Positions 16,181 to 32,000 of a stretch of DNA of 32,000 bases are shown here, piece after piece. A program made the position numbers and the translations under genes. The notes under the pieces are model-generated. The model was not told where the DNA came from and made no database searches. It saw nothing but the letters and a program-made list of their open reading frames with translations. The DNA is from Candidatus Calditenuis fumarioli. Its GTDB lineage: Archaea > Thermoproteota > Nitrososphaeria_A > Caldarchaeales > Calditenuaceae. Positions within the stretch are counted from its first letter, which is position 1, and each line of letters starts with the position of its first letter. The stretch spans positions 595,548 through 627,547 of the forward strand of contig JANVYR010000001.1 of NCBI GenBank assembly GCA_030059665.1. The letters are read 5' to 3'.

Positions 16181-16355
16181 GGCGGGCCGGCAGAGGTGGT
16201 CGCCGGGGTCCGGGGGAAGCCTCGGGCTCGGGTGCCCCGACCGGTACCAGGGCCCGAAAGGGTGCCGCAGCCGGAAGGGGTACGGGCGGCTGACGCTCAC
16301 CGGCGGCAACTGGGAAGGTGGGCGTGAAGCGCCCGCGAACCGCCGAATGCCCGTC
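16181..16355 (+). ncRNA. Unassigned structured RNA candidate (closed four-helix fold)
   Basis: Terminal helix 16181-16191 / 16342-16355 (11 bp, 3-nt bulge). Inner helix 16195-16205 / 16301-16311. A 10-bp hairpin at 16206-16229 with a GAAG loop. A long imperfect hairpin at about 16237-16289 capped by GAAA (16256-16259). A 7-bp hairpin at 16318-16336 with a UGAAG loop. An AT-rich TATA-like stretch lies about 25-30 nt upstream. There is no coding potential. The strand is inferred from the GNRA/GNAR loops. Confidence 0.35.
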
Positions 16356-16367
16356 TCCGTTCTCCCC

Positions 16368-18656
16368 TCAACCGAATTCCCTCACGAGCTCCCAGAGGTA
16401 GTTTGGCTTTGCGGGCGACCCGTCGATCCTCAGGGGCCAGAGCGCGTCCTCGATCGCGTTCATCACCGCCTGCGCGAACCCTATCGTGGCCGCCTCCCCC
16501 ACGCCCTTCGTCCCGAGGACGTTGGGTGCCGGCGTAACCGTCCTGTCCAGCTCGAACCTCGGAACCTCCGCCGCGGTCGGGACCAGGTAATCGGTCAGCG
16601 TCGCGGTCAGTGGCTGCCCCTCCCCGTCGTAGACCACCTCCTCGTGAAGGGCCTGGCCCAGCGCCTGCACAGCGCCTCCTATCAGCTGACCCTCGACCAG
16701 CATCGGGTTCACCACGTTGCCGCAGTCGTCCACCATCACCGCCTTCAGCACCCTGACCTGGTACGTCTCGGGATCGACCTCGACGACGACCGCGTGGGCG
16801 CCGAACGGGTACGTCAGCCTCGGCGAGTGGTGCGCTGAGGCCTCGAGTCCGGGCTCGATCTCCTCGGGCAGGGAATCCTCGTCGTGTGCCGCCGCGGCGA
16901 CCTCCCTGAAACCGACGGATCTGTCCTCGTGGCCCCTCACGTGGAACCTCCCCCGCTCGAAGACGACGTCCTCGGGCCTCACCTCCAGGAGGTGCGCGGC
17001 CACCCTCACCATCTTCTCTTTGACCCTCTCGCACGCGGCGATGATCGCGGCCCCTCCCGACGTCAGCGTCCAGCTCCCCGCCGTTCCCCCTCCCTCGGGC
17101 GCGGTCTCCGTGTCGCCGTACAGAACCCTGACGTCGTCGAGCTCGATCCCGAAGAAGTCGGCCACCAGCTGGGCGAAGGCCGTCTGCTCTCCCTGGCCGT
17201 GGGGCATGGTGCTGGTGTAGACGGTCACCCTGCCGTCGCTCTCCACCTTCACGCGGGCCGACTGGGAAGCGAAGTTGCAGACCTCCACGTAGGCGGAGAG
17301 CCCTATCCCCACGAGCTTCCCCTCGGCCCTGGCCCTCTCCTTCAGGCCCCTCATCTGCCGGTACCCGAGGAGGTCGAGGGCCCTTCTCAGCGCCGCGGCG
17401 TAGTCGCCCGAGTCGTAGGTGTGCCCCGTAACGGTCCTGTAGGGGAACTCGTCACGTCCGATGAAGTTGCGGAGCCTCAGCTCAGCCGGGTCGATGCCGA
17501 GCTCCCTCGCGAGGCGTTCGACGGTCCGCTCGATGAGGTAGGATGCCTCCGGCCTTCCAGCCCCCCTGTAGGGCCCCGCGGGGACCTTGTTGGTGTAGAC
17601 GCCCACCACCTCGCCCTCTATGCCCTTCAGCCTGTAGGCTCCCGGGAGCATGCTGAGGACGCTCAGGAACGGGGCCTTGGTGAGGCTGTAGAGGTAGGCG
17701 CCGACGTCGCCGAGGATCCTCGCTCTGATGCCGGTGAGCAGGCCGTCCCTCCTCGCGGCCACCTCGATCTCAGCGACCACGCCCCTGCCCTGAGTCGACG
17801 CGGTGAGCGACTCCGACCTCGTCTCGACCCACTTGATGGGCCTCCCGAGGAGCCTCGCGGCCGCTGGCACCGCCACGTCCTCCGGGTAGTGGGCGATCTT
17901 CGACCCGAAGGCCCCTCCGACGTCGTGGACCACGATTCTCAGGTCGCTGATCGGGATGCCGAGGGCCTCTGCAGTCCACCTCCTCAGGTCGTGAGGGAAC
18001 TGGTGCGTCGCGTGGACCACCAGCCTCCCGGTTCCCGGCTCCGGAACCGCCAACACTCCCCTCGTCTCCATGGGCACCGCCGCGAGGCGCTGGATCCTGA
18101 ACCTGTACCGCTTGACGACCTCCGCCGCACCGAAGGCCCCTTCCGGGTCACCACCGGTCCTCCTGTGGGTGAAGGCCACGTTGGTGCCAAGCTCCTCGTG
18201 GACCAGCGGAGCCCCCTCGCTCAGCGCCCGCTCCACGTCCGTGACCGGAGGCAGCCTCTCGTACTCGACCTCGACCATCTCAGCGGCGTCGTAGGCGACG
18301 TACCTGTCCTCCGCTATCACCATCGCCACCGGCTCCCCGTAGTACCTGACCTTCTTCGAAGCCAGCGGCCAGGCCCTCGGGACGTCGCTGCCCGCGTCCG
18401 TGCTAACGGGCCCCGCGTGCCTCGCCATCTCCTCCGCCGTGAGGACGGACACCACTCCCCTCATCCTCTCGGCCCTACTCGCGTCGATCGACCTGATCCT
18501 CGCGTGGGCAACCCTGCTCCTGACGAAGGCCGCGTACAGCATGCCTGGAACCCTCAGGTCGTCGAGGAACGTCCCTGTGCCGGTCACGAACCGCCTGTCC
18601 TCAACCCTCGGAACGGGTCTGCCCACGTACCTGAGCGACGCGAACGGCCAGCTCAA
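16368..18656 (-). CDS. Molybdopterin-dependent hydroxylase large subunit (xanthine dehydrogenase / CoxL form II-like / aldehyde oxidoreductase family)
   Basis: 762 aa. N-terminal GRPVPRVEDRRFVTGTGTFLDD and the active-site loop PAGPYRGAGRPEA (the AYRGAGR type, not the form I VAYRCSFR). TTGA overlap with the upstream gene. Confidence 0.8.
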   Translation of the reverse strand: MSWPFASLRYVGRPVPRVEDRRFVTGTGTFLDDLRVPGMLYAAFVRSRVAHARIRSIDASRAERMRGVVSVLTAEEMARHAGPVSTDAGSDVPRAWPLASKKVRYYGEPVAMVIAEDRYVAYDAAEMVEVEYERLPPVTDVERALSEGAPLVHEELGTNVAFTHRRTGGDPEGAFGAAEVVKRYRFRIQRLAAVPMETRGVLAVPEPGTGRLVVHATHQFPHDLRRWTAEALGIPISDLRIVVHDVGGAFGSKIAHYPEDVAVPAAARLLGRPIKWVETRSESLTASTQGRGVVAEIEVAARRDGLLTGIRARILGDVGAYLYSLTKAPFLSVLSMLPGAYRLKGIEGEVVGVYTNKVPAGPYRGAGRPEASYLIERTVERLARELGIDPAELRLRNFIGRDEFPYRTVTGHTYDSGDYAAALRRALDLLGYRQMRGLKERARAEGKLVGIGLSAYVEVCNFASQSARVKVESDGRVTVYTSTMPHGQGEQTAFAQLVADFFGIELDDVRVLYGDTETAPEGGGTAGSWTLTSGGAAIIAACERVKEKMVRVAAHLLEVRPEDVVFERGRFHVRGHEDRSVGFREVAAAAHDEDSLPEEIEPGLEASAHHSPRLTYPFGAHAVVVEVDPETYQVRVLKAVMVDDCGNVVNPMLVEGQLIGGAVQALGQALHEEVVYDGEGQPLTATLTDYLVPTAAEVPRFELDRTVTPAPNVLGTKGVGEAATIGFAQAVMNAIEDALWPLRIDGSPAKPNYLWELVREFG

Positions 18657-31143: not shown

Positions 31144-31226
31144 TTCCGAGATCTTCTGCTGTGTTAGCCCTCAACTTTCCTCGCGAGAACGACGAGTTCA
31201 GCCGAGAAAACGCGAAATCTCCGTTG

Positions 31227-31328
31227 CGGGCCCGGTGGGACTCGAACCCACGACCTTCCGGTTAACAGCCGGGCGTTGAAGATATTGGGGGAATACCCCA
31301 ATATACTCTTCCGCTGAGCTACGGGCCC
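31227..31328 (-). tRNA. tRNA-Asn (anticodon GTT) interrupted by a ~30-nt intron in the D arm; no encoded CCA
   Basis: Hand fold. Acceptor GGGCCCG/CGGGCCC. D stem GCTC...GAG|C split by the insert. Anticodon stem CCCGG/CCGGA (one C-A mismatch) with loop CTGTTAA. Variable loop AGGTC. T arm GTGGG-TTCGAGT-CCCAC. Discriminator G. Confidence 0.8.
31276..31305 (-). other. Non-canonical tRNA intron (D-arm position, about 24/25)
   Basis: TATATTGGGGTATTCCCCCAATATCTTCAA contains a perfect 9-bp stem, ATATTGGGG/CCCCAATAT. Removing it restores the GCTC/GAGC D stem. The exact splice junctions are not determinable by eye. Confidence 0.6.
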
Positions 31329-31352
31329 ACGTACTGATTATTTTCCATCTTA

Positions 31353-31363
31353 GCATTTAAACC
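31353..31363 (-). promoter_or_regulatory. TATA box (minus strand GGTTTAAATGC) for tRNA-Asn
   Basis: An A/T box centred about 30 nt upstream of the tRNA 5' end at 31328. Confidence 0.45.
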
Positions 31364-31625
31364 TTAGTAGACGAAAGAAGACACCGTTCGGATGAGCGTC
31401 AGCTCCGTCGATCTCTGCTCATCCTCATCGCTTACCGAAATCACATGATTAACTCGATGATAAGAAAGGGAGTGATTTCAGTTAGCAGATGGTTGTCAGT
31501 ATTGTTTAGGGGAGCCGGAATGAGGACCTCAGGCATTCGGCTGTTAATTGCTTCATCCCCCCTCGCGGTAGGTCTGCATTCGGCGCTCTATTGCCCAGGT
31601 CCCCATCCGGCTCTTTCCCCCGTTC

Positions 31626-32000
31626 TCACCTCTTCATCGCTTTTAGTGTATTCTTTACGGTTTTCAGGACCTCCCGCACCTCTTTGCCCTTGATCTTCTG
31701 CCTTCCCTTCACACTAATTGTCAGCGATTCTGTCGCATCTTTCAGCATTTTGTTGTACTTTCCGTCGTTCGGATAGTAGTTACCAGTATAGGTCAATATC
31801 TTCCTCAGCCCTAAGCTGAAGTCCACGTACAACAGCAGTTGGACCAAAGCTACCCTGCCGTAGAGGCATTTGCCTGAGCTGATCCTCAATCTCTCCGATA
31901 TCTGATGGATCGGTAGGAAGCTTCTCGCCAGTGCGTCTATCTCCCTGGCCAGCTTATCTTTCCGCCTCCTCAGGTGATTGATGAGATGTCTGTAGTGTGC
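31626..32000 (-). CDS. 3' part of a hypothetical gene running off the right edge (low-GC, possibly mobile-element derived)
   Basis: The frame is open from the window edge to the TGA at 31626: AHYRHLINHLRRRKDKLAREIDALARSFLPIHQISERLRISSGKCLYGRVALVQLLLYVDF...KAMKR. No recognisable family. G+C is visibly lower than in the core genes. Confidence 0.4.
   Translation of the reverse strand, partial: AHYRHLINHLRRRKDKLAREIDALARSFLPIHQISERLRISSGKCLYGRVALVQLLLYVDFSLGLRKILTYTGNYYPNDGKYNKMLKDATESLTISVKGRQKIKGKEVREVLKTVKNTLKAMKR

Follow-up and report, generated by a model that had tools for sequence, protein, structure and literature searches.

The 32,000-nucleotide stretch of Candidatus Calditenuis fumarioli DNA analysed here (the window) contains a 380-bp spacer, located between a class I lysyl-tRNA synthetase gene (14377-15987, minus strand) and a gene of a CoxL-like molybdopterin enzyme (16368-18656, minus strand), in which no ORF with a family match is found, and it raises the question of what such a spacer may encode. 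Its part at approximately 16178-16357 has a G+C content of 75% versus 62% in the flanks, is free of ORFs, and ends 10 nt from the CoxL-like stop codon. According to our analysis, 16178-16357 on the plus strand is a real stand-alone structured-RNA gene, belonging to an uncatalogued family of Caldarchaeales (Aigarchaeota). Taken jointly, the observations are best explained, as we see it with some reserve, by an independently transcribed gene of a new RNA family whose transcript would be cut by EndA and joined by RtcB into a 154-nt circle.

The strand of the gene is established by its fold. The plus strand at 16175-16360 has a minimum free energy of -112.4 kcal/mol (z = -3.64), a stability that 200 dinucleotide shuffles never attain, whereas the minus strand of the RNA region gives z = +0.14, so that the stretch folds better than its shuffles on the plus strand only. 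A closed fold of a G+C-rich, ORF-free stretch had been proposed by the sequence-only reading, and it is on the plus strand that this proposal holds. The strand-specific signal places the RNA on the strand opposite to both flanking genes, and the G-U pairs likewise place it opposite to the lysyl-tRNA synthetase and CoxL-like genes.

Homologs of the RNA are found in 35 copies in genomes of at least eight Caldarchaeales genera, and in 27 further distinct metagenome sequences. BLASTN detects the stretch in four of six congeneric genomes, with 75-88% identity; a covariance model made of five sequences of the Calditenuis genus (R1) reached a second genus, and model R2 extends the family to three genera from two families, with a single full-length copy in each genome that has it (by genus, 4 of 6, 7 of 8 and 6 of 7 genomes). 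A synteny search beside a conserved protein gene added more divergent members from four other genera and from a single stray genome (G041) belonging to a fifth. A pattern scan with one genome per GTDB species gave true matches only in Caldarchaeales, namely in Ca. Calditenuis, of which a culture (Calditenuis ramacidaminiphagus) has been recently obtained (PMC12979851), Ca. Terraquivivens and other Caldarchaeales MAGs. Bacterial pattern matches all failed the covariance model, and the scan of viral contigs gave no member; among metagenome matches 41 of 67 loci are members, and the full-length ones make up the 27 distinct sequences. Model R2, applied to 151 genomes of the phylum (132 of other classes), found no member outside the class, at a low sensitivity, as only 17 candidates per genome were scored. 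In family f4, G041 is the only one of 18 genomes that has the RNA and the neighbour protein, which lie side by side (locus L080); this RNA resembles the g3 type, and the pair may have come there by bin contamination or horizontal transfer.

All members share one plan, composed of a helix P1, an asymmetric internal loop (7 nt/4 nt), a helix P2 and three hairpins with almost no linkers between them. In the window its parts are as follows.

[quoted passage not shown]
16349-16356, plus strand: 3′ strand of P1; trailer, predicted to be discarded; pairs with 16180-16187
16195-16199, plus strand: 5′ strand of P2, GGUGG; pairs with 16340-16344; 100% paired in 22 members
16201-16234, plus strand: hairpin H1, apex GGGG-GAAG-CCUC with loop 16216-16219; 9 of 11 modelled pairs with double changes
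16235-16281, plus strand: hairpin H2, long and imperfect, with GAAA cap 16256-16259; 12 of 12 basal pairs with double changes
16283-16335, plus strand: hairpin H3, with a lower stem, an internal loop, a 9-bp upper stem and an apical element at about 16301-16317; 10 of 11 upper-stem pairs with double changes

Relatives keep this fold by compensatory changes. In the 22 best-scoring members 56 of 66 base pairs have changes on both sides and 92.9% of cells are paired, values inflated by the alignment having been fitted to the structure of the model; in the same structure-fitted alignment the covariation score is 0.679, while shuffles give 0.204, with 0 of 500 as high, and slid partners give 0.05-0.13. 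P1 has at least 6 bp in 33 of 35 members and up to 12 bp, being broken or short in L008 and L083, and P2 has at least 5 bp across members, two of its pairs covarying (AU/GC/UA and AU/GC/CG, 22 members). Several helices drawn by the sequence-only reading reappear here: its terminal helix as 16180-16187 with 16349-16356, its 10-bp GAAG hairpin (16206-16229) within H1, and its long GAAA-capped hairpin as H2, each with compensatory changes in relatives. Two others did not survive the comparison. The inner 10-bp helix (16195-16205/16301-16311) has only 6-8 of 11 pairs left in congeners, the 7-bp UGAAG hairpin (16318-16336) loses pairs there, and both are impossible in other genera; the relatives support in their place P2 (16195-16199/16340-16344) and the long H3.

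Outside of helices, conservation across the family is concentrated in two segments, CCGG-N-A-N-AGG-N-G at the 5′ end and C-N-CCGA-R-N at the 3′ end, and partly in the H1 apex. The sole universally conserved nucleotides (CGG-N-A-N-A-GG and CC-G-A-R-N, respectively) adjoin P1. The H1 apex, GGGG-NNNR-CCYC, is kept in most genera with a variable cap (GAAG, GGAG, GGUG, GAUG, GUAA, GAAA or GCAA). The H2 cap is GNRA or UNCG in relatives, the UNCG type occurring in other genera, and this interchangeability makes the H2 arm look structural. The apical block of H3, a G-rich tip, is invariant inside each genus and different between genera.

The gene is framed by the following elements.

16143-16159, plus strand: BRE/TATA-like promoter block, aligned with AACCGAATTATATTGGA of congeners; presumed to act as the promoter
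16359-16369, plus strand: pyrimidine-rich tail GTTCTCCCCTC, likely a termination zone; weak in the Calditenuis genus

The AT-rich, TATA-like block upstream, pointed out already from the sequence, is real and conserved in every member tabulated: a TATA-type box (TTTATATA, GTATAAAT or ATTATAT) is located about 24-31 nt upstream of the RNA in all 22 of them, each time preceded by an A-rich BRE-like stretch. A T-rich tract comes after the terminal helix throughout the family, and relatives have T runs (TTTTT, TTTTTT) within 5-15 nt past P1. Across members the RNA has 61-78% G+C versus 39-67% in the flanks, and in relatives with AT-rich genomes it forms a G+C island (61-66% versus 39-50%), an appearance typical of a stable RNA gene in a thermophile. 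About 190 nt (window 15988-16175) separate the start codon of the lysyl-tRNA synthetase gene from the AT-rich block, and the RNA gene and this divergent gene probably share the block as a promoter region.

It would be logical to ask whether such an element serves one of its neighbours or is a disguised form of a known RNA, and both suggestions had been made for this locus. A cis element could here serve the CoxL-like gene as its 3′ UTR or terminator, precede the lysyl-tRNA synthetase gene as a leader, or be a sensor of the riboswitch type that drives antisense transcription. The 10-nt distance to the CoxL-like stop codon, the position at the 3′ end of the CoxL-like gene being retained in genera g1 and g3, and the convergent gene that follows the RNA in every lineage speak for it. 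Against it, the G-U pairs and the z-score assign the RNA to the strand that neither neighbour uses, and the RNA is preceded by a promoter of its own. Genera differ in how it is oriented with respect to the CoxL-like gene, lysK is not a constant neighbour even within the genus, and a same-strand gene follows the RNA in no lineage. A cis role is thus very improbable, and the 3′ UTR/terminator variant, which the sequence-only reading had held in reserve, is ruled out by the strand test together with the independent promoter. Its other comparison was with the S domain of SRP RNA or with a reduced RNase P RNA, and we find a reduced or second SRP-like or RNase P-like RNA hardly credible. The two hairpins capped by GAAG and GAAA in the C. 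fumarioli genome and a size near that of type T RNase P RNA do recall these molecules, but no Rfam family, including Archaea_SRP, RNaseP_arch and type T, matches at E <= 10, the caps vary or turn into UNCG in relatives, and the AGCA loop and CR-I/CR-V are absent. The bona fide RNAs are encoded elsewhere in the genome, the SRP RNA on contig 2 in full length (81.6 bits, the Rfam gathering score being 96.5 bits) and a type A RNase P RNA with 141.5 bits, and with both located the SRP-like reading of the spacer RNA fails.

Other searches for a known identity were equally negative. Rfam 15 at the gathering level finds only two tRNAs in the whole window; on the RNA region at E <= 10 it gives only noise far under threshold (MH_s36, Pab19, rydB), and on four divergent members at E <= 1 nothing meaningful. 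Archaeal SRP RNA (RF01857) was rejected for the lack of a match at E <= 10 and of the AGCA loop of helix 8, and with the SRP RNA present on contig 2; RNase P RNA of types A and T (RF00373, RF02357) was rejected as no model matches and there are no CR-I/CR-V and no P4 pseudoknot. For an H/ACA guide sRNA the Pab19 match reaches 15 bits versus a gathering score of 55 (E = 8.3), there is no conserved ACA, and the hairpins are near-continuous helices. A Moco/Tuco-type riboswitch, suggested by the CoxL-like neighbour, has no Rfam match and no same-strand gene downstream, and a link to lysK was rejected because this neighbour varies even within the genus. The literature search found no description of the family. 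With no Rfam match, a conserved covarying structure and an independent promoter, the label of an unclassified structured RNA, first given as a possibility, is supported.

As to the genomic surroundings, two genera (g1 and g3) have the RNA next to the 3′ end of the CoxL-like gene, yet in opposite orientations, convergent in Calditenuis and tandem in g3 (sites compared: window 16368-18656, minus; L014 23-1429, plus; L010 1701-3179, minus). This flip suggests a small inversion in which the RNA gene moved together with its promoter.

The key to the possible fate of the transcript is the conserved core next to P1, which can be refolded as a BHB motif, the signal of the tRNA-splicing enzyme, with a 3-nt bulge, a 4-bp helix and a 3-nt bulge, P1 serving as the outer helix. 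To calibrate its geometry and the place of the cut, we used nine canonical tRNA introns found in the genome itself. In these the order is an outer helix (the anticodon stem), a central 4-bp helix (positions 32-35 with the intron) and bulges b1 b2|b3; the cut is after the second bulge base on both strands, and the bulges read ag|a, gg|a, ta|a, aa|a or ac|a. Transferred to the window, this gives the following assignment.

16188-16191, plus strand: 5′ strand of the central BHB helix, CGGC; pairs with 16342-16345 (GCCG)
16192-16194, plus strand: 5′ three-nt bulge AG|A, predicted cut 16193|16194; 3 nt long and A-N-A in 35 of 35 members
16340-16345, plus strand: 3′ strand of P2 (16340-16344) overlapping the 3′ strand of the central helix (16342-16345); two alternative registers
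16346-16348, plus strand: 3′ three-nt bulge AA|U, predicted cut 16347|16348; A-R-N in 35 of 35 members
16194-16347, plus strand: predicted mature RNA, a 154-nt circle with the four arms P2, H1, H2 and H3, as deduced from the BHB geometry

The BHB geometry itself is a constant of the family: the exact 3-nt/4-bp/3-nt spacing, with the strand topology of tRNA introns, is present without exception in the 35 genome members and the 27 distinct metagenome members, and the central helix CGGN/NCCG is paired at 4 of 4 positions in 29 of 35 and 27 of 27 of them, respectively. A comparable end motif appears in 42 of 3000 shuffles (1.4%), and at the ends of the genome's own SRP and RNase P RNAs no comparable BHB is found. 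The fourth central pair covaries among the 35 members (AU 22, GC 7, CG 2, UA 1, GU 1, GA 2). Its 5′ base is unpaired in the P2 register, and its 3′ base covaries also with base 20 in P2, so that both registers are apparently under selection. The two lie close in energy: relative to the P2 register the BHB register costs only -2.6 to +6.9 kcal/mol at 37 °C across members, and in the window +0.4 kcal/mol (37 °C) or 0.0 (75 °C). The bulge bases that the circle would keep are conserved, and two of the three that would be discarded (N16 and the third base of the 3′ bulge) are variable. The predicted junction, G16345-A-A|A16194 (...CCGCCGAA|AGGUGGUC..., or in another notation ...GAACCGCCGAA|AGGUGGUCGCC...), is a GAAA loop closing P2, and it would read GARA, a GNRA-type loop on a C-G pair, in all 35 members.

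The enzymes for such processing are encoded in the genome, which has two EndA-domain genes (contig 1: 825730 and 664270) and RtcB; two EndA subunits imply the alpha-beta type of TACK archaea, and the TACK-type EndA is described, along with the definition of the BHB, as accepting relaxed motifs (PMC7714728). The RtcB match is split on contig 2 of the genome (G000; 419269-422019, loci L184 and L185), with profile positions 1-83 at 419269-419544 and 46-426 at 420808-422019, both parts lying within one 974-aa open frame, which suggests an intein or another large insertion in the RtcB gene. ARAGORN also reports several tRNA genes (Asn, Asp, Arg, Lys, Ser) with "introns" of 1.1-2.1 kb, at window 31226-32000 (G000 contig 1: 626773-628148) and at other sites.

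We propose the following course of events. A primary transcript of about 185 nt would pair its ends as P1, and the conserved bases beside P1 would fold into the BHB; the tRNA-splicing endonuclease would then cleave each bulge behind its second base (16193|16194 and 16347|16348), and RtcB would join the ends of the excised inner part into a 154-nt circle. This circle would be a four-way junction of H1, H2, H3 and P2, the latter having a GAAA cap made by the ligation. As both ends bear the signal at which the tRNA-splicing enzyme cuts and the pieces are joined, the RNA in its mature form is probably, judging by the sequence, such a 154-base four-armed ring, and in other genera the predicted circle would measure 151-194 nt.

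The same conserved ends can be read in another way, namely as belonging to a stable linear RNA in which P1 is kept in the mature molecule and the 7/4 loop is a motif for protein recognition or tertiary contact. Some weight is lent to this by the P2 register, which has the lowest energy in the majority of members. The inner flanking helix of the BHB, 3 bp in the window, shrinks to 1-2 bp in g6, g9, g13 and the majority of g15; there the 5′ bulge would depart from the canonical form, and the competing register is more stable by up to 6.9 kcal/mol. P1 is also long (6-12 bp) and covarying, as would befit a structural closing stem. A linear molecule, however, leaves unexplained why base 14 covaries with a base that pairs also with base 20, why the 3/4/3 spacing is exact in 62 sequences, why the circle-retained bases are conserved in comparison with the discarded ones, and why the would-be junction is always GNRA. 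Nor does the conserved loop, on comparison by eye, look like an H/ACA element, a K-turn, loop E/sarcin-ricin, UAA/GAN or the 11-nt tetraloop receptor, none of which fits its variable positions. We therefore hold the linear form to be rather unlikely and continue with the excised and ligated circle.

What would such a circle do? Our best guess, made with low confidence, is that it is a stable protein-binding scaffold RNA, with the H1 apex and the genus-invariant tip of H3 as its specific surfaces. A candidate partner is suggested by a gene of a ~230-aa protein (sites: G000 contig 2: 358203-358850, L026 1468-2148; L014 1693-2388, minus; L022 1735-2403, minus), which lies tail-to-tail with the RNA in most genera of the order, namely in g3, g4, g6, g9, g13 and g15, and also in G041, and in g13 overlaps the 3′ end of the RNA by about 20 nt. 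The protein has the invariant features KxNHSxxE, a D, ExETGF and SKxARY, and gives no sequence match in Pfam, NCBIfam or PDB. Its AF2 model (pLDDT 90) leads in Foldseek to PD-(D/E)XK nucleases, including a tRNase toxin domain, with low TM-scores (0.28-0.5), so that it may be said to resemble this nuclease fold. We may even imagine that the RNA and this protein form one RNA-protein machine, the circle being a subunit of a new ribonucleoprotein that would act as an RNA-scaffolded or RNA-directed nuclease. Besides the structural hits, the direct convergent adjacency in the seven lineages named and the absence of both genes from family f4, save for the one genome that has them side by side, favour this idea. 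In the Calditenuis genus, on the other hand, the RNA and protein genes are on different contigs, and a second RNA copy beside the protein gene was not found there. The protein is widespread, with more than 4300 homologues in many other Nitrososphaerota families, and the RNA is absent beside them in 20 sampled genomes of other families, while genus g5 has the protein and no detectable RNA; a joint loss of two adjacent genes, moreover, needs just one deletion, and the TM-scores are low. The separate contigs, the thousands of homologues, and the RNA-less neighbours in the 20 genomes and in g5 make us rate the partnership, and the nuclease ribonucleoprotein with it, as improbable.

Among known systems the closest to the proposed circle is the permuted circular SRP RNA of Thermoproteus tenax and T. 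uzoniensis, a functional circular RNA made at a BHB (Plagens et al. 2015; PMC4731332). There, as here, a stand-alone stable-RNA gene with a TATA box has a short leader and trailer that pair into a BHB, and the host is a TACK-group thermophile; EndA cleaves and the ligation makes a functional hairpin loop at the junction, as is predicted for the spacer RNA. The Thermoproteus RNA, unlike ours, is recognisable, permuted in its gene order and of known function, whereas the spacer RNA matches none of the known families, shows no visible permutation and is accompanied in the genome by an SRP RNA gene of the normal linear type; its circularity is a prediction. Circular pre-16S and pre-23S rRNA intermediates also arise at BHB motifs of archaeal processing stems (PMC7714728, PMC10351888), where flanking inverted repeats form the outer helix with the BHB at its base and the inner RNA is excised and circularised, as we predict for the spacer RNA. 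Those circles, however, occur on the way to a large known RNA and are later opened again, while the RNA considered here, of 154-190 nt, is without a known linear mature form. With archaeal tRNA introns (hBHBh′) it has an identical strand topology, 4-bp central helix and 3-nt bulges, and its bulge letters match those of the genome's own introns (ag|a, aa|a); a tRNA, though, is made of its exons and loses a short intron, whereas here the "exons" amount to about 15 nt of covarying stem on either side, all the conserved structure being in the excised part. Finally, type T RNase P RNA (RF02357) is of similar size, G+C-rich, from a thermophile of the same phylum and closed by a P1/P2 stack, but it differs by its model match, P4 pseudoknot and CR-I/CR-V, which the spacer RNA lacks, and a full RNase P RNA of type A is encoded elsewhere in the genome.

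The mechanism, in which a BHB is cleaved and RtcB ligates the ends, is known to act on tRNA introns, rRNA intermediates, one 5′ UTR and the permuted SRP RNA of Thermoproteus (PMC4731332, PMC7714728). The new part is the RNA family itself, which matches nothing catalogued. If the proposed processing is true, this would be, as far as we know, the first case in archaea of a stand-alone gene family that has, as its only conserved product, a circle generated by the tRNA-splicing machinery, without a recognisable linear ancestor. It would also mean that BHB-dependent circularisation builds dedicated stable RNAs in thermophiles, beyond intron removal, rRNA maturation and the rescue of permuted genes. 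We know of no non-coding RNAs described in Aigarchaeota beyond the universal ones, and the family adds to this group a class-wide and probably abundant RNA.
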